Shown here piece after piece: positions 13,324-26,561 of a stretch of DNA of 64,000 bases (position 1 is its first letter; each line of letters starts with the position of its first letter). The notes under the pieces were generated by a model. That model had not been told where the DNA came from, searched no databases, and saw nothing but the letters and a program-made list of their open reading frames with translations. The stretch lies in NCBI GenBank assembly GCA_963846575.1, contig CAWJWJ010000002.1, positions 256,001 to 320,000 on the forward strand, in the 5' to 3' direction. The DNA is from an uncultured Nitrospiraceae bacterium. Its GTDB lineage: Bacteria; Nitrospirota; Nitrospiria; Nitrospirales; Nitrospiraceae. The position numbers and the translations under genes were made by a program.

Positions 13324-13956
13324 ATGAACGTTCGACCGATGCTCGCTCACGTGACCGACAAGCCAGTGTTAGGGGCGATGGTGCGATTGTGCCGAGGGGT
13401 GAGGGAGCTGATCGGTCAGATCCATGAAGACTGGACGGTGAACAGCCGGGACTGGACGATGCCCGGCTTTCGCGCCCTTACCGTTCACCGCATAGGTACC
13501 TGGGTTTCCAACAGACGCGGAAGCATCCTGAAGTCGGGCATGCTTCTGCTGTACGGGATGATGTATCGATACGTGCGGAATCACTACGGCGTTGAAATAC
13601 CATTGACGACCACGATAGGACGAAGAATGCTGCTTGTCCATCAACATGGGATCGTGTTCCATTGGAAAGCTGTCGTAGGGGATGACTGTGTGATCCGACA
13701 CAATGCCACGATAGGCGCGGGATACGGGGGAGCCAAAACCCTTCACAAGGGGCCAAAACTTGGAAATCGGGTGGAAGTCGGCCCTGGCGCCGTGATCTTT
13801 GCCGCCGTCAAGATCGGGGATGGGGCGGTGATTGGACCGAATGCCGTGGTCATGTCCGATGTGCCGGCGGGGGCCCGAGTCTTTGCTGAGGCGCCACGTG
13901 TCATTTGCCTGCCTAACCAGACCCAGGGGAAATCAGTTTTAGCTGGGACCAGCTAG
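13324..13956 (+). CDS. Hexapeptide-repeat (left-handed beta-helix) acyltransferase, CysE/WcaB-like
   Basis: GVEIPLTTTIGRR, HQHGIV, VVGDDCVIRHNATIG, IGDGAVIGPNAVV repeats. Confidence 0.85.
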   Translation: MNVRPMLAHVTDKPVLGAMVRLCRGVRELIGQIHEDWTVNSRDWTMPGFRALTVHRIGTWVSNRRGSILKSGMLLLYGMMYRYVRNHYGVEIPLTTTIGRRMLLVHQHGIVFHWKAVVGDDCVIRHNATIGAGYGGAKTLHKGPKLGNRVEVGPGAVIFAAVKIGDGAVIGPNAVVMSDVPAGARVFAEAPRVICLPNQTQGKSVLAGTS

Positions 13957-13996
13957 TCGGAGGATTTCTACAGTTCGACTAGGGAGTTTCCTAGTC

Positions 13997-16051
13997 ATGC
14001 CTGCCTTCCTGCTGAGTCAAATTGTGCACCGCCAGAATGATATGTCGCTTCTCGGAAAAATAGAATCGACCTCGGGCACTTCATCGCCCGCCACTCCGGA
14101 GGTTCGCGGCGATGCCTATCGGAAGTCTGGCCTCATCGCACAGGCGATTCAGGCGTATCTGGAAGGTGTGATCCATCCGGCCCCGGCCGGACTGTGCCTC
14201 AAGCTTGCGCGGAGTTACGAAGAGATTCAGAATTATGCAGAGGCCAGCCGTTGGGCGCTCGCTATTGTCGATTCGGGCGATGATTTTACGGCATGGCAGA
14301 ATGGCTGGTCCCTGTTCCGGCGGGTGGCGTCGAAGGCTAACCGGCCGATAGTTCGGAAGGCCAAAGTCGCGCTTCTCGGCAGCTACACGACCACCCAATT
14401 TGGTGCCATGTTGTGTTTTGCGGCGAGTCGATTCGGCATTGCGGTCGACCTCTATGAAAGCCATTACGGACAGTTTCAGCAGGAGATCATCGATCCCGCG
14501 AGCGGCCTCTATGCCTTCCGGCCCGAGATCGTCCTGCTCGCCGTGCACGAAAAGGATCTCCGACTGCCTGAATACAGCCAGCACCCGGAGGCGGATATCC
14601 GTCAGGAAGTCGGCCGCTGGACAGCGCTGTGGAAAATGGTGGAAGAACGCTCCGGGGCTCGTGTCATACAGCATAACTTCGCCCTGCCTTGCGAGATTCC
14701 TGCCGGCCATCTCGCGACGCGTCTCTCCGGGTCCCGATACATGATGGCACAAGCCGTCAACGCAGGGCTTGGACGAGCGGCGGCAAATTCGGTGTCATTG
14801 GTCGATTGCGAACGGCTGTCCGCGTACATCGGTAAGCAGCGATGGTGCGACCCCCGCTATTGGAACCTCTCCAAACAAGCCGTTGCACTGGAGGCTGTTC
14901 CCTTACTCGCCCGGCACACCGCGGCCGTCATGGCAGCCGCTTTGGGGGCGAGCCGGAAATGTCTCGTGCTCGATCTGGACAACACTCTGTGGGGCGGGGT
15001 TATCGCGGAAGACGGGTTGGCGGGAATTCGATTGGGCAATGGGGTCGAAGGTGAGGCCTTCGTCGCCTTTCAAGAGTATCTTCTTCGGCTCAAGGAAAAG
15101 GGCGTGATCCTGGTAGTCTGCTCGAAGAATAACCATGCCGACGCGATCCAGCCTTTCGAAAAGCATTCCGAAATGCGACTGAAGCTCGGGGATATTGCCC
15201 TGTTTCTTGCCAACTGGGAATCGAAACCCGACAACATCCGCCGGATAGCCAAGACGCTGCAGATCGGGTTGGACTCACTGGTGTTTGTCGATGACAACCC
15301 GGTCGAGCGGGAGATCGTCCGCAAGTTTCTGCCTGAAGTTGACGTGATACCGCTTCCCGAGGACCCGTCCTATTATCTCAGAGCGCTCTCTCAATACCTC
15401 TTACTCGAGACGAGCGCGTTTACGGCCGAGGATAGTCAACGGACCGATCAATATCGAGCCCGGGCTCAGATCTTGGAACTGGAAACGTCCGCCGGGTCCA
15501 TTGAAGACTTTTATCGAGGGCTCCAGATGCAGGCCATCGTGGCTCCTTTCGATGCGGAGCAGTTGCCGCGGATCGCCCAGCTCATCGGGAAGACGAATCA
15601 ATTCAACCTCACGACTCGCCGTCACGGCATGGCGCAACTCGAAGAGTGTATGCAGGATGCGCACTGCGTACATCTCGCCCTGCGGTTGAGGGATCGTTAT
15701 GCAGACCACGGGTTGGTGAGTTTGATGATTGCGCGGCAACAGGGTGCCGTGCTGGATATCGATACGTGGCTCATGAGCTGCCGGGTCATCGGTCGGACCG
15801 TCGAACGGACGATGCTGGCGCACCTCTGCCGGCGGGCCGCGCAGCTCGGCTGTGCCACCCTTCAAGGTACCTATGTCCCGACGGAAAAGAATGCGATGGC
15901 CGCAGACGCCTATGCGAAGTGCGGATTTGAGCTGCTCCATCGGAATGACGGCCACGAGATCTGGACCTACGATCTTCCTTCCAAGGGCATGCTCACGAAT
16001 GAGTTCGTGAAATCGGTCCAGTCCTGGGAATTCGCTGATGGCGCCGGCTGA
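13997..16051 (+). CDS. FkbH-like HAD-IIIC glyceryl-ACP synthase
   Basis: VLDLDNTLWGG, VCSKN, FVDDNPVER, KTNQFN and MSCRVIGR motifs; start could be 14042. Confidence 0.92.
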   Translation: MPAFLLSQIVHRQNDMSLLGKIESTSGTSSPATPEVRGDAYRKSGLIAQAIQAYLEGVIHPAPAGLCLKLARSYEEIQNYAEASRWALAIVDSGDDFTAWQNGWSLFRRVASKANRPIVRKAKVALLGSYTTTQFGAMLCFAASRFGIAVDLYESHYGQFQQEIIDPASGLYAFRPEIVLLAVHEKDLRLPEYSQHPEADIRQEVGRWTALWKMVEERSGARVIQHNFALPCEIPAGHLATRLSGSRYMMAQAVNAGLGRAAANSVSLVDCERLSAYIGKQRWCDPRYWNLSKQAVALEAVPLLARHTAAVMAAALGASRKCLVLDLDNTLWGGVIAEDGLAGIRLGNGVEGEAFVAFQEYLLRLKEKGVILVVCSKNNHADAIQPFEKHSEMRLKLGDIALFLANWESKPDNIRRIAKTLQIGLDSLVFVDDNPVEREIVRKFLPEVDVIPLPEDPSYYLRALSQYLLLETSAFTAEDSQRTDQYRARAQILELETSAGSIEDFYRGLQMQAIVAPFDAEQLPRIAQLIGKTNQFNLTTRRHGMAQLEECMQDAHCVHLALRLRDRYADHGLVSLMIARQQGAVLDIDTWLMSCRVIGRTVERTMLAHLCRRAAQLGCATLQGTYVPTEKNAMAADAYAKCGFELLHRNDGHEIWTYDLPSKGMLTNEFVKSVQSWEFADGAG

Positions 16052-17573
16052 TCCCTCCTCTCCCCCGCAAGAACCGCCCACGGTGTGTTTCACGACTCAG
16101 GACCTGACGCTGTTCAGTGCAGCCAGCCACGACACGAATCCTCTGCATGTCTCTCAGGAATACGCGCGGGCCACGCCCTACGGGGAGCCCGTGGTGTTTG
16201 GGGTGCTCGGTGGCTTGGCTGCACTTGGGCATCTTCCGGAACGCGAAGACCAGGTTCTGCACAATCTCTCGCTGGAGTTTCGCAACCCCCTCACCGTCGG
16301 AGTACCGTACCGCCTGGAAGTCAGCGAGCCGATGGCCACGCAGGCACTCGTAAAACTCTACGACGCGGGTCGATTGATGATAAAGGCGACTTTTATCTTT
16401 ATGCCTAGGCCAGCGGGCGTGGATTCATCAATGGTCTCCGCTGTGCCTGGTCCTCTGGAAGCGGCGGATCGGACGAGGGACAGCTTTATTGCGGGGGACC
16501 ACCTGTCCGGCACCTACGGCCCATCCCGTGCTGAGTTGGAACAGGTGGTTGAGCGTTGGGGGCTATCCGCCAAGGGAGCGACATCGGTCCACATTGCAGC
16601 GATGATGTGGGCAAGTTTCATCGTCGGTATGGAGCTTCCTGGGAAACGGGCGATTTTCTGGCGGCTGGTACTCGATTTTGAGCCAGCAGAGGGGCCTCGA
16701 CAGGGGCCGCTCTCCTATGATGTCACGATAGATAATTTCGACGAGCGGTTCGATCTTCTCCACACCACGGGGAATCTTTCATGCGGCACCAGCCCCTGTG
16801 CGACGGCTCGGATGTGGGCCTTCGTGCGAAAGGACTCTCCGCGCTCCTCTCTTCAACAGATTACGGATCTTCTGCCATGCTCCGAACAGCTCAAAGGGAA
16901 GGTTGCGTTGGTGATCGGAGGCAGTCGGGGACTGGGCGCCGCGATCACCCTGGCATTGGTGTCACAGGGCTGTTCCGTGCTGATGAATTTCCGTCACTCC
17001 CGGTCTGAGGCCGAGCGGCTTGTGGCGAGTCTGGCGGGAGCATCCGGCCTCATCGAGCTGGTGCAGGGTGATGCGGCTGATGTTGAATGGTGCCGGGCGG
17101 TCCAGCGGAATATCCTGGACCGGTACGGCAGGCTTGATGTGCTGGTGTGCAACGCCTCACCGCCCATCCGTCCGCTGCCCTTCGTGCCGGAGAAGGCCAT
17201 CCAGTTTCAACAGTTCCTTCTCGACAGCGTCGCGTTGATCAGTCTCCCGATGTCGTGTTTTCTCGATTCATTGTCTGAACGTTCCGGATGGAATGTTGTG
17301 GTATCTTCGGCGTTCGTCAAGGATCTTCCAGAGGACTGGCCGCACTATGTCACTGCCAAATGCGCTGTTGAGGGATTGGTGCAATGGGCCGCGCTGCATT
17401 ACCCCAAGGTTCACGGTCTTCTAGTCAGGCCTCCGAAATTGCTAACCGATCAGACCAATACGACGCTGGGCAGACAGGGGGCCATGCGTGTTGAGCAAGT
17501 GGCCGCTGCCGTAGTCGGGCAGCTCTGTCATGCCGCGTCGTCACAGACGGTGCGGATATTGGAAGATTTTTAA
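16038..17573 (+). CDS. MaoC-type dehydratase / SDR ketoreductase fusion
   Basis: N-terminal FSAASHDTNPLH hydratase motif, SFIVGMELPG, then VALVIGGSRGLG and YVTAK; overlaps fkbH. Confidence 0.85.
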   Translation: MAPADPSSPPQEPPTVCFTTQDLTLFSAASHDTNPLHVSQEYARATPYGEPVVFGVLGGLAALGHLPEREDQVLHNLSLEFRNPLTVGVPYRLEVSEPMATQALVKLYDAGRLMIKATFIFMPRPAGVDSSMVSAVPGPLEAADRTRDSFIAGDHLSGTYGPSRAELEQVVERWGLSAKGATSVHIAAMMWASFIVGMELPGKRAIFWRLVLDFEPAEGPRQGPLSYDVTIDNFDERFDLLHTTGNLSCGTSPCATARMWAFVRKDSPRSSLQQITDLLPCSEQLKGKVALVIGGSRGLGAAITLALVSQGCSVLMNFRHSRSEAERLVASLAGASGLIELVQGDAADVEWCRAVQRNILDRYGRLDVLVCNASPPIRPLPFVPEKAIQFQQFLLDSVALISLPMSCFLDSLSERSGWNVVVSSAFVKDLPEDWPHYVTAKCAVEGLVQWAALHYPKVHGLLVRPPKLLTDQTNTTLGRQGAMRVEQVAAAVVGQLCHAASSQTVRILEDF

Positions 17574-17777
17574 CAAGGAGTACGACTTGGCATCTCGCGG
17601 TCGCTCATGACTGATGCGATGCCAGGTGTGGCGGTTGGGCACAGGGTGTGTCGAGAGGGAAATCACCCGGGGGGGCGTCATCTCTCGAGGTCTTTGCACG
17701 ATATATGGTGGGCGTAGCGGCTTGACCGCATGCTACGACGATCGTACATTCATACCGACGCAGCTAGGAGCATACAC

Positions 17778-18014
17778 ATGGAGTTGCACGAACGACTGGA
17801 AGAGGTGTTTCGCCAAGTGTTCGACAATGAAAACCTCACGCTGACGGATGAGATGATGGCCACGGACATACAAGGCTGGGACTCCGTGGCACACATTAAT
17901 CTCATGTTTGGCATCGAACAGGCATTTCGAGTCCGATTCAAGGGCAACGAACTGGCTGACATGAAGAACATCGGCGAATTGAAGCGGTTCCTGGCCGGCA
18001 ATGGGAAACATTAA
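17778..18014 (+). CDS. Acyl carrier protein
   Basis: 78 aa acidic protein with GWDSVAHINL phosphopantetheine Ser motif; AGGAG RBS. Confidence 0.9.
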   Translation: MELHERLEEVFRQVFDNENLTLTDEMMATDIQGWDSVAHINLMFGIEQAFRVRFKGNELADMKNIGELKRFLAGNGKH

Positions 18015-18123
18015 CTGCCGAACTGCGGAGCGTGCAGGGCAGAATCGGATGGTATGTTCCGCCCCTCGATCGCGGCTGCCGTTATTGGGGAGGGCGGAGC
18101 GAACCTTCGCCGATCTAATCTGA

Positions 18124-19401
18124 ATGGGTGACATTGCGATCCACGTTGACAGCTTGCATAAACTCTATCGTCTGGGAGCCATGCATGCTCAGGACGGGTC
18201 CTTGGCCAGCGTGCTCTCGCGTGGACTCCGCCGGTTGACAGGACGGCGGGCCGGCGGCGCCACGGGGGCTACAGAGGCCATCTGGGCCTTGCGCGACGTC
18301 TCCTTCGAGATCAAGCGGGGTGAAGTGTTCGGAGTTATCGGCACCAATGGCTCGGGGAAAAGTACGCTCCTTAAAATCCTCTCCCGGGTGACGGAACCCA
18401 CGAAGGGGCGGGCGGTCATCCATGGGCGCTTTTGCGGCCTCCTGGAAGTGGGGACGGGGTTCCATCCGGAATTGACCGGCCGCGATAACGTGTACATGAG
18501 CGGCGCCATTTTGGGGATGAAACGGCAGGAAATTACCAGGAAATTCGACGAGATCGTGGCCTTTGCCGAAGTGGAACAGTTTATCGATACGCCGGTGAAA
18601 CACTATTCCAGCGGGATGTATGTCCGACTGGGGTTTTCGGTCCTGGCCCATATGGATCCGGACATTCTCATCGTCGATGAGGTGTTGGCGGTGGGAGACG
18701 TGCGCTTTCAAAAAAAGTGTATGGGCAAGATGGAGGATGTGGGACAGCATGGGCGGACGGTGATCCTTGTGTCTCACGACATGCCGGCGATTACCCGGAT
18801 GTGCAAACGGGCGATTCTGCTCAACAAGGGGGAGATCGTGCAGGCGGGGGCGGCGCACGATGTCGTTCGGCACTATCTCCAGGCGGGTCATATCCAGCCC
18901 TCTGTCGGATGGCCGGATCTCACCCAAGCACCGGGGAATGAGGTCGTGCGCTTGCGGGCCGTACGGGTTCAGACCGAATCCGGATCGGTTATGGATCGAT
19001 TTGACATCCGACGGCCGATCGAACTCGAGGTAGAGTTCGATGTTATAAAACCCGGACATGTCTTCGTCCCGGTGTTTAATCTGCATAGCGAGGAAGATCA
19101 GGTTATCTTCATCGCGCATGATCGCGATCCGGCATGGCAACGCACTCCACGCCCCATGGGTCGGTATGTGTCTTCTGCTTGTGTGCCGGGAAACCTGCTC
19201 GCTGAAGGCATCGTGACAGTCGCAGCCCTCATAATGACCGAGAGTCCGTTTCGGATGCATGCCCACGTTCCGCGCGTGATTGGCTTCCGGGTGGATGATC
19301 CCGGCGTGGGAGACTCGGCACGCGGGGACTTCCACGGTCGATGGCCTGGGGTCGTGCGCCCCTTATTGAAGTGGCGGACAAGGTTCTCGCCCGCGGATTA
19401 A
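18124..19401 (+). CDS. wzt: Polysaccharide ABC exporter ATP-binding subunit with C-terminal carbohydrate-binding domain
   Basis: WALRDVSF, GTNGSGKST, GFHPELTGRDN, YSSGM, VDEVLAVGD plus a long C-terminal extension. Confidence 0.88.
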   Translation: MGDIAIHVDSLHKLYRLGAMHAQDGSLASVLSRGLRRLTGRRAGGATGATEAIWALRDVSFEIKRGEVFGVIGTNGSGKSTLLKILSRVTEPTKGRAVIHGRFCGLLEVGTGFHPELTGRDNVYMSGAILGMKRQEITRKFDEIVAFAEVEQFIDTPVKHYSSGMYVRLGFSVLAHMDPDILIVDEVLAVGDVRFQKKCMGKMEDVGQHGRTVILVSHDMPAITRMCKRAILLNKGEIVQAGAAHDVVRHYLQAGHIQPSVGWPDLTQAPGNEVVRLRAVRVQTESGSVMDRFDIRRPIELEVEFDVIKPGHVFVPVFNLHSEEDQVIFIAHDRDPAWQRTPRPMGRYVSSACVPGNLLAEGIVTVAALIMTESPFRMHAHVPRVIGFRVDDPGVGDSARGDFHGRWPGVVRPLLKWRTRFSPAD

Positions 19402-23625: not shown

Positions 23626-24426
23626 CTATCGCGTCGCCAGTTTCTTCTGAATCAACTCCGCACCATAACGTCCGGACAGGAGCATCGAGCCGAAGGCCGG
23701 TCCCATGCGTGGGGTGCCGAAAACCGCCGCAACAGCCAATCCGATGACAAAGCAGTTCGCGTAGACTTCCCCGGTCCGGTCCATGACCTCTTCTTCCGAG
23801 CGAGACACCCACATGGCGCCATTACCAGGCACGGATTGATACAGATTGCGTTTGTTCAAAAGATTGACCACGACCGCGTCATGTCCGGTCGCATCCACGA
23901 CGATTTTACTCTCCAGCGCGATGGGATCAACATGAATAATATCGTGGCCGGCCATTTCAGCCGTCGTGCTATTCACGACCACCCCCTCGAGCACGGCATC
24001 CCGCCGCAAGATCAAATCGACCACACGTGTCAGGTTCATAATCTTCGCACCGGCGCTGTAGGCGGCGGCAATTAACGCGCCCGTGGCATGGGGAGGGTCG
24101 ACCATGTACATGCCGGGACATTCCTTGATCTGCTTGCAGGGCACACCTACTTCTTTCAGGATCTTGTGCGCGGGGGCGCAAATGGTGGCCTTGTTCATCA
24201 AGTACCCGCCGGACCAGAACCCTCCGCCCAAGGCCAGGCTTTGTTCGACGATGAGCGTCTTGACACCCATCCTGGCCAGGTCGTGAGCGCAGATCAACCC
24301 CGACGGACCGGCGCCGACGATGATGACGTCGCTCTCGATGAGCTGGTCGAATTCCTTATAATATTCCCGCGCGATATGACGGGTGATGTCGCGCTCGCGT
24401 AACGGCGCCGGTTTTGGCTTGCCCAT
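23626..24426 (-). CDS. thi4: Sulfide-dependent adenosine-diphosphate thiazole synthase (His-type Thi4)
   Basis: DVIIVGAGPSG, GGGFWSGG, HVDP, DATGHDA, GAMW and RMGPAFGSMLLSG motifs. Confidence 0.92.
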   Translation of the reverse strand: MGKPKPAPLRERDITRHIAREYYKEFDQLIESDVIIVGAGPSGLICAHDLARMGVKTLIVEQSLALGGGFWSGGYLMNKATICAPAHKILKEVGVPCKQIKECPGMYMVDPPHATGALIAAAYSAGAKIMNLTRVVDLILRRDAVLEGVVVNSTTAEMAGHDIIHVDPIALESKIVVDATGHDAVVVNLLNKRNLYQSVPGNGAMWVSRSEEEVMDRTGEVYANCFVIGLAVAAVFGTPRMGPAFGSMLLSGRYGAELIQKKLATR

Positions 24427-24557
24427 GCAGTCTTCTCCCTCGTCGGCAGTCGATCGTGGCTCCCAGCCTCCTGCTGAGCTCTGCCAAAGCCTCAGCGTCT
24501 CCCGGGGTTGCGCTGAATCTTGGAATTGCCCGGCCCTGGGTGGCCTCTTGACCAGCC

Positions 24558-26561
<2,004 letters not shown>

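Follow-up and report, generated by a model that had tools for sequence, protein, structure and literature searches.

A putative glycan-acylation cassette displaced from a polysaccharide cluster

The window analysed here is a 64-kb stretch of DNA from the genome of an uncultured Nitrospiraceae bacterium (C2:256001-320000 of the source genome, G000), and it carries on its + strand (13324-19401) a cassette of five co-oriented genes encoding a beta-helix acyltransferase (AT), an FkbH-type loader, a dehydratase-ketoreductase fusion (DH-KR), an acyl carrier protein (ACP) and a Wzt. We propose that the cassette makes a lactate-type acyl-ACP and attaches the group to a surface glycan by means of AT, and on the sequence evidence we give the full scheme, with all steps taken jointly, a probability of roughly 0.57. 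The five genes and the motifs reported in an earlier sequence-only reading of the window are all present. The interpretation offered there is partly supported: synthesis of lactyl- or glyceryl-ACP is well backed by homology, and a link to a surface glycan by synteny in sister genera, domain fusion and Wzt paralogy, while direct transfer by AT and recognition of the acyl group by Wzt are steps that we infer.

In the proposed scheme the cassette would be a displaced tailoring module of an XrtA/PEP-CTERM-type surface-polysaccharide (exopolysaccharide, EPS) locus. FkbH would act as known for its family, taking 1,3-bisphosphoglycerate, stripping the phosphate and loading glyceryl on ACP. By homology to the DH-KR proteins of polyketide synthases (PKS), the DH would dehydrate glyceryl-ACP to pyruvoyl-ACP and the KR would reduce this to lactyl-ACP. 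AT would then transfer the lactyl group, still in the cytoplasm and probably in O-ester linkage, to a sugar of a glycan that is bound to a nucleotide or a lipid, and the glycan would exit through the Wzm of the EPS locus, able to pair with either of two Wzt paralogues, so that the cassette Wzt would contribute a different sugar-binding domain to a shared exporter. Genomes without DH-KR would attach glyceryl instead.

The strongest evidence comes from the position of the cassette in a sister genus. The XrtA/PEP-CTERM-type polysaccharide cluster of G000 is located at C2:2.18-2.21 Mb, 1.9 Mb from the cassette, and encodes export proteins, a chain-length kinase, an initiating transferase, wzm-wzt, nucleotide-sugar enzymes and glycosyltransferases, and also carries GDSL/SGNH and AsnB-like genes. 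In the sister-genus genome G194, orthologues of AT, FkbH, ACP and DH-KR (54, 67, 73 and 61% identity) sit midway along the homologous EPS cluster, and 17 of the 33 called genes of the G000 EPS region have a match in the G194 region. Two further genomes, G244 and G269, have AT-FkbH-ACP at the same place in the EPS cluster, without DH-KR. Identity to the window proteins in these three genomes is 54-57% for AT, 67-68% for FkbH and 73-78% for ACP, and in all three an unknown ~360-aa gene and AsnB come after the cassette. G303 has a complete cassette at the window's site. G244, G269 and G303 belong to a set of eight FkbH loci, the other five of which encode more distant FkbH types (33-39%), likewise among glycan genes. 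Because the cassette lies inside the EPS cluster in the sister genus, we regard it as a module of that cluster displaced in the source genus. Delivery of the acyl group to the EPS-locus glycan appears likely from this synteny together with the Wzt pairing described below.

The EPS cluster of G000 is also adjoined by phosphoenolpyruvate mutase and phosphonopyruvate decarboxylase genes (L122:15234-18220; G000:C2 ~2.215-2.218 Mb), a pair that could serve phosphonate decoration of a surface glycan.

The cassette is conserved in the genus and DH-KR is optional

Of 36 same-genus genomes, 25 have a near full-length DH-KR, which is frameshifted in one of them and truncated by the end of the contig in another, and 30 have FkbH. 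DH-KR was found in none of the 24 genomes from the order's other families. In a draw across the phylum, the DH domain was present in 8/251 genomes, namely seven of this genus (G000 included) and G194. The gene order AT-FkbH-(DH-KR)-ACP-(wzm)-wzt is conserved at two main genomic sites, and the grouping of the five genes is therefore not due to chance. AT stands beside FkbH in 29 of the 30 genus loci, the exception being a locus whose contig only starts within FkbH. In G001, G007 and G017 a decayed DH-KR (remnants were detected in G007 and G017) goes with intact AT, FkbH and ACP, and this optional presence suggests a lactyl/glyceryl switch. The entire cassette is frameshifted and Wzt broken in G029, and G028 has lost all of the cassette except a broken wzt.

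G000 also has the site at which most relatives carry the cassette, but there the cassette is missing (C2:2521016-2528797, L127); this site contains genes for a TPR protein, a 240-aa secreted protein with no Pfam match and a 2OG-Fe oxygenase together with ABC genes, indicating that the cassette uses alternative sites. The upstream 240-aa gene, the TPR gene and the efflux genes, neighbours of the cassette in many relatives, were considered as parts of it and rejected, since they remain at their own site in G000. A contig scan with a generic short-chain dehydrogenase/reductase (SDR) pattern was also made, and 52 of the 80 matches listed (L069-L120) hit the SDR part only and were dropped. In G009 a filamentous-prophage-like stretch with Rep_trans and Zot-family genes lies directly upstream of the cassette (L031:1021-5209). 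An integrase-flanked island in G026 (contig C9, L248:3320-13850) bears a cassette-type wzt, a glycosyltransferase gene, an AlgX-like gene and a solitary ACP gene whose product shares 78% identity with the window's ACP, with no FkbH or DH-KR match in the island.

FkbH, DH-KR and ACP are predicted to make lactyl-ACP

The FkbH gene (684 aa; 13997..16051, +) is intact, as the sequence-only reading had held. Its product matches TIGR01686 with 291.7 bits (cut-off 146.65) as well as PF21211, and consists of an N-terminal extension, an FkbH_N domain, a HAD domain with DLDNT at residue 326 and a C-terminal domain with the MSCR cysteine motif at 593; the real start may be ~15 codons further downstream. 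The only solved relative found was Bacteroides BF1531 (3slr, E 3e-71). The DH-KR reading frame (511 aa; 16038..17573, +) overlaps that of FkbH by 14 nt, and Pfam MaoC and adh_short matches bear out its description as a MaoC-SDR fusion. The predicted MaoC-type DH covers residues ~15-265, with DTNPLH at 32, and the SDR ~283-511, with GGSRGLG at 294 and YVTAK at 437 (model pLDDT 94); the Pfam MaoC match spans residues 7-57 only, and full-length fold searches listed SDR matches only.

Two plasmid-borne proteins align with 94% of the length of DH-KR. One, with 36.9% identity, is a free-standing 500-aa DH-KR of Streptomyces griseofuscus pSGRIFU1 that adjoins ACP and HAD-IIIC genes in a PKS cluster; the other, with 32.9%, is a PKS of Burkholderia sp. 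FERM BP-3421 p1, which matches at its N-terminus. We take these to be the lankacidin and FR901464 clusters, respectively, although the records name neither. In the rows of the DH-KR tree, D32, N34, H37 and S423 are invariant (63/63) and Y437 and K441 are kept in 62/63. The relevant part of a review describes the conversion of glyceryl-S-ACP into lactyl-S-ACP by DH-KR in FR901464 and lankacidin biosynthesis (PMC4765723). Since DH-KR is homologous to these PKS proteins and its catalytic residues are conserved, lactyl-ACP is the expected product. Nitrospira records make up most of the nearest DH-KR homologues that bear a name, and the genus is accordingly treated here as Nitrospira; no DH-KR relatives were found among viral contigs.

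The stand-alone ACP (78 aa; 17778..18014, +) starts at an ATG at 17778 with AGGAG before it and carries its serine in a GWDS sequence. The predicted WDS type is borne out by the motif, which is invariant in 22/22 aligned cassette ACPs; NCBIfam ACP matches are weak (E 3.4e-5, below cut-off). Known families and intact motifs make glyceryl loading followed by DH-KR conversion highly likely.

AT is related to serine acetyltransferases but differs from CysE

AT (210 aa; 13324..13956, +; Hexapep PF00132, E 7.6e-11) is a left-handed beta-helix (hexapeptide) acyltransferase of the CysE/EpsC/WcaB superfamily, with which it shares the fold family, the N-terminal helical part and a conserved His. It had been called WcaB-like; the beta-helix fold stands, but WcaB is not its best match. 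The NCBIfam scores are 80.4 bits for EpsC (cut-off 150), 79 for CysE (210.65) and 66.9 for WcaB (196), all far below cut-off. Serine acetyltransferases use acetyl-CoA, and LpxA and LpxD take acyl-ACP as donor. The LpxA/LpxD models matched only ~50 residues of AT with 28-35 bits (cut-offs 207-242). His106 of AT is invariant in 72/72 aligned homologues and aligns with the His of the serine acetyltransferase DHATG motif. AT is without the CysE motifs DHxxG and RHP, reading VHQHG and HKGP instead, and a separate CysE-like gene in G000 bears DHGMG and KRHP. Because AT scores below cut-off and lacks the Asp-His and Arg-His motifs, both of which are found in the separate gene, it is not the housekeeping CysE.

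Among the 120 AT homologues listed, two have a C-terminal ACP-like domain: P0372, in which Pfam confirmed a PP-binding (ACP) domain, and P0357, in which the domain was seen by eye and Pfam gave no confirmation. A search for longer AT fusions (369-2000 aa) yielded one weak match only, and this is a weak test since the fusion protein P0383, described below, surfaced another way. By sequence comparison, AT forms a subfamily of its own, some members of which are fused to ACP. Given the other steps, its co-migration with FkbH and ACP, the fusions and its mutual exclusion with MBOAT transferases make it reasonably probable that AT takes the acyl group straight from ACP.

The cassette Wzt has a homogenised ATPase and a divergent sugar-binding domain

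The cassette Wzt (425 aa; 18124..19401, +; GTNGSGKS and YSSGM motifs) is a paralogue of the EPS-locus Wzt and has its carbohydrate-binding domain at ~18950-19398. The sequence-only reading had linked the cassette to a polysaccharide exporter; the Wzt ATPase subunit is there, but a complete exporter is not, because wzm is reduced to a 35-nt 3'-end remnant (18089..18123, +) that matches the end of the EPS-locus wzm at 34/35 nt and whose stop abuts the wzt ATG. With wzm otherwise deleted from the window, the cassette Wzt would depend on the Wzm of the EPS locus. Seven relatives (G001, G007, G010, G014, G017, G018 and G030) still have an intact wzm between ACP and wzt, and in genomes with two wzm copies the pair shows 97-98% identity (G001, G007) or 79% (G030).

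The cassette and EPS-locus wzt of G000 are 100% identical over their first 450 nt, 98.7% over nt 1-780 and 57% from nt 840 to the end. In the genomes with both complete copies (n=9; three single-contig), the ATPase halves have an identity of 0.906-0.996 within each genome, against means of 0.80-0.82 between genomes, and the C-terminal parts of the two copies have 0.56-0.60. The ATPase copies pair by genome in the tree in 7/9 cases, and the C-terminal tree is split by locus. Assembly collapse could inflate the exact ATPase values but is not the source of the within-genome identity, because the copies are otherwise only 80% alike. As judged from sequence identity and trees, the ATPase halves evolve in concert in 9/9 genomes.

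The two wzt copies (L122, G000:C2:2203405-2204673, and window 18124-19401) also constitute a near-identical repeat of ~800 nt. Draft assemblies of the genus often break inside wzt, and in G009 both copies are in pieces, so rearrangement or mis-assembly across the repeat is likely. Mis-joins across it could also account for the metagenome contigs L162 and L176, which pass from the cassette straight into genes of the EPS locus, and for the two partial Wzt genes in G009; none of these was used as evidence.

The predicted fold of the C-terminal part is that of Wzt carbohydrate-binding domains (pLDDT 85.5; best 6o14 and 8dky, E ~1e-6; also 2r5o and 5hnp), and Pfam Wzt_C gave no match to the cassette Wzt. 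The domain is under purifying selection in both lineages, with a ratio of non-synonymous to synonymous substitution rates (dN/dS) of 0.096 in the cassette clade and 0.060 in the EPS clade, and the clades differ at 21 nearly fixed positions. The relevant passages of PMC9445017 describe C-terminal Wzt domains as reading a terminal cap and certifying the polymer for export. It is possible from the modelled fold that the cassette domain reads a lactyl cap, although the G194 domain does not favour this. We also considered whether the Wzt domain shifted where DH-KR was lost. At 7 positions G001, G007 and G017 stand apart from the remaining 15 cassette copies, but up to 4 such positions turn up in controls and the branch of G017 is the longest, so this was not used.

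Homologues outside the genus occur in glycan and natural-product loci

We examined 80 non-Nitrospira DH-KR loci and counted the 51 with at least 8 kb of DNA, leaving out 29 shorter ones; classes were assigned by tblastn against Pfam-annotated reference proteins, and the loci are top matches, hence non-random and non-independent (four are from Nocardia). Of these, 23 are linked to PKS or non-ribosomal peptide synthetase (NRPS) genes, 23 have glycan or MBOAT genes and 5 are unclear. A consistent position of homologues beside PKS genes, which would have spoken against a glycan role, was thus not found. A beta-helix transferase occurs in 8/23 glycan-type loci, 2 unclear loci and none of the 23 PKS/NRPS loci, and MBOAT in 6/23 glycan-type loci and one PKS/NRPS locus; the two never occur together in the 51 loci. 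The split and the partner counts point to a module common to natural-product and glycan pathways whose transferase partner varies.

Fusions join the same parts in single chains. In the metagenomic protein P0383 (L185:4986-9494), one 1503-aa chain comprises beta-helix, WDS-ACP, FkbH, DH and KR, with a probable N-terminal membrane segment and a glycosyltransferase nearby, and in L184 a beta-helix-ACP-FkbH chain stands ahead of DH-KR. P0383 would make a good one-protein model for biochemistry. Several related arrangements were also seen. In the metagenomic loci L188, L191, L196 and L199, DH-KR lies beside wzm/wzt-like genes, esterases and NRPS genes, and the Wzt C-terminal domains are only distantly related to that of the window (14-18%). 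A glycan locus of G039, from another family (L140:7513-13936), has a short MaoC-SDR, FkbH, ACP, a beta-helix transferase, two SDRs and a cytidylyltransferase. FkbH-ACP with MBOAT, a Dlt-like variant, was found in L274, L275 and L276 of the same family and in L059 and L178 of other phyla.

Genomic surroundings of the cassette

The cassette has the GC content of the remaining window and is flanked, among the reading frames scanned, by genes unrelated to it, LuxR-type and SnoaL reading frames upstream and an unannotated 132-aa reading frame and a GcvT-like gene downstream. A promoter scan found 3 sites where 3.0 were expected. Among sequencing runs, none of RNA was listed as containing the sequence, and two of DNA were, with shares of 0.08-0.09. 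At 23626-26474 lie reading frames that resemble, judging the translation by eye only, a Thi4-type thiazole synthase and ThiC. The sequence-only reading had stated that ketosynthase (KS), NRPS and MBOAT genes are absent. This holds for the window, in which genome-wide searches gave no condensation, KS or MBOAT match, and for MBOAT (PF03062) it holds throughout G000 (99.9% complete); it does not hold for the genome in the other respects, since 12 condensation domains and one modular KS occur 0.8-1 Mb from the cassette. One NRPS there (~3140 aa; L252:5554-14922, G000:C2 ~1.089-1.098 Mb) has an acyl-activating domain, a carrier, two condensation-adenylation-carrier modules and a thioesterase, and is accompanied by an ABC exporter and a phosphopantetheinyl transferase gene; reading frames of similar length with condensation domains recur across the genus.

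Alternative explanations

Several of these observations weigh against the proposed scheme. The nearest solved relatives of AT are serine acetyltransferases, far ahead of any ACP-using enzyme, and the beta-helix domain of P0383 belongs to a different subfamily, with 19% identity to AT over 182 columns (probability 96.6%). Neither a beta-helix nor an MBOAT gene was seen in the DNA examined of 9/23 glycan-type loci, so another transferase may exist. AT could accordingly be a standard acetyltransferase that uses acetyl-CoA and modifies either the glycan or the lactyl 2-OH, with the ACP-bound acyl group moved to the glycan by another protein, for which the FkbH_N domain, the GDSL/SGNH protein, the AsnB-like protein or the ~360-aa protein that follows the cassette together with AsnB in the three sister-group EPS loci would be candidates. 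We consider this unlikely, because it was AT and not the alternative genes that moved with FkbH and ACP to distant sites, because AT-ACP fusions exist, and because beta-helix and MBOAT genes exclude each other as expected if each is the transferase. The group delivered could also be glyceryl, pyruvoyl or a further processed C3 acyl, with DH-KR a dispensable modulator, as the decay or absence of DH-KR beside intact AT, FkbH and ACP in G001, G007, G017, G244 and G269 would allow; N-glyceroyl sugars are known, according to passages in PMC5378307 and PMC9912281. The DH-KR of the window is nevertheless intact, overlaps FkbH and keeps all catalytic residues of the PKS DH-KR, and the protein is found in most genomes of the genus (25/36), which makes a non-lactyl product improbable here.

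The link to a glycan is open to challenge as well. No glycosyltransferase was found among the flanking reading frames scanned, gene conversion between similar paralogues, which could explain the ATPase identity, can be neutral, and the ancestry of AT is CysE-like. The acceptor might then be a lipid, lipid A, serine or a protein, and wzt a hitch-hiking duplicate. Against such an acceptor, which we judge quite improbable, stand the position of the cassette inside the EPS cluster in three genomes, the absence from AT of the Asp before His and of the Arg-His pair in a genome with a separate CysE-like gene, and the conservation, rather than drift, of the Wzt sugar-binding domain. Moreover, 23/51 outside loci are PKS/NRPS-linked, four of them also with wzm/wzt-like genes. 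A further possibility is that an NRPS or PKS encoded elsewhere receives its lactyl starter in trans from the cassette, in a lankacidin-like manner. The PKS/NRPS linkage of these loci, the free-standing DH-KR, ACP and FkbH trio in the PKS cluster of pSGRIFU1 and the condensation domains found in 39/39 genus genomes searched agree with it. We regard this role as very improbable, because the two G000 NRPS start genes examined open with their own AMP-binding and DIP2-like (fatty-acyl-AMP-ligase-like) domain and a carrier, and NRPS genes also occur in the cassette-less G004, G008 and G012. No KS or condensation neighbours were seen at the cassette loci of the relatives examined, and the nearest non-Nitrospira neighbours in the DH-KR tree, with weak support, come from glycan-type loci. 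A more specific form of the lactyl-glycan scheme is that AT caps the non-reducing end of the EPS glycan with lactyl (glyceryl where DH-KR is missing) and that the second Wzt, its ATPase kept interchangeable by gene conversion, and thus able to dock on the shared Wzm, reads this cap. We regard it as doubtful; the Wzt domain of G194 is closer to the EPS clade (52-53% identity) than to the cassette clade (45%), which does not fit it well.

Relation to known systems and significance

D-alanylation of teichoic acids by the Dlt system uses a carrier protein and an MBOAT. The proposed pathway resembles it in that a dedicated carrier supplies an acyl group to a surface polymer, and cassette versions with MBOAT exist; it differs in that G000 has no MBOAT match, the proposed transfer is cytoplasmic and the loader is FkbH instead of an adenylation enzyme. 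The lactyl starter modules of the FR901464 and lankacidin PKS (FkbH/GAT, ACP and DH-KR; He et al. 2014 as cited in PMC4765723) have the same domain set. Unlike them, the cassette has no KS, its partners are a beta-helix transferase and Wzt, its orthologues lie in an EPS cluster, and its FkbH has an extra FkbH_N domain unmatched in the plasmid PKS clusters. In its function the cassette would thus correspond to a lactyl starter module of a PKS, yet it falls outside that group because there is no assembly line.

The cassette Wzt shares its ATPase and C-terminal fold with the Wzm-Wzt O-antigen exporters of Aquifex aeolicus, E. coli O9a and Raoultella O12, and its ATPase is closely similar to that of A. 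aeolicus Wzt (E 3e-67). In exporters that depend on the carbohydrate-binding domain, the caps mentioned in the relevant part of PMC9445017 are methyl, (methyl)phosphate or Kdo. The present system differs from these in having two Wzt paralogues with a homogenised ATPase and differing binding domains, and in the proposed cap, an ACP-derived acyl group. In Campylobacter jejuni, cj1302 is an FkbH-domain gene in the flagellar glycosylation locus of a strain that has dimethylglyceric-acid-modified pseudaminic acid (PMC7099621); the passages of that paper on cj1302 leave its function aside and are silent on DH-KR, a beta-helix partner and Wzt. Lactyl and glyceroyl substituents both occur on bacterial glycans according to part of PMC9912281, which calls the N-lactyl group rare, and passages in PMC5378307 state that the enzymes for N-glyceroyl were unknown in 2017 and call the genetic basis a major open challenge. 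A literature search, with most subscription papers outside its reach, found no account of this pathway or of conversion-homogenised Wzt paralogues.

The cassette is real and widespread, and it apparently represents an uncharacterised variant of known chemistry, turned to the acylation of glycans, to which an exchangeable exporter subunit comes as an unexpected addition. The FkbH-ACP-(DH-KR)-transferase module is a concrete candidate route to lactyl and glyceroyl groups on glycans that is amenable to work with four soluble proteins. If the scheme is true, the chemistry of polyketide starter units would reach to glycans of the cell surface, and the CysE-like enzymes would gain a member that takes small acyl groups from ACP. 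The Wzt pair is a natural experiment in how ABC exporters may diversify glycan recognition with the motor fixed and, if the cassette Wzt indeed reads an acyl cap, one transporter would export two differently capped polymers by subunit swap. In nitrite oxidisers, such a decoration could influence floc formation or phage binding.

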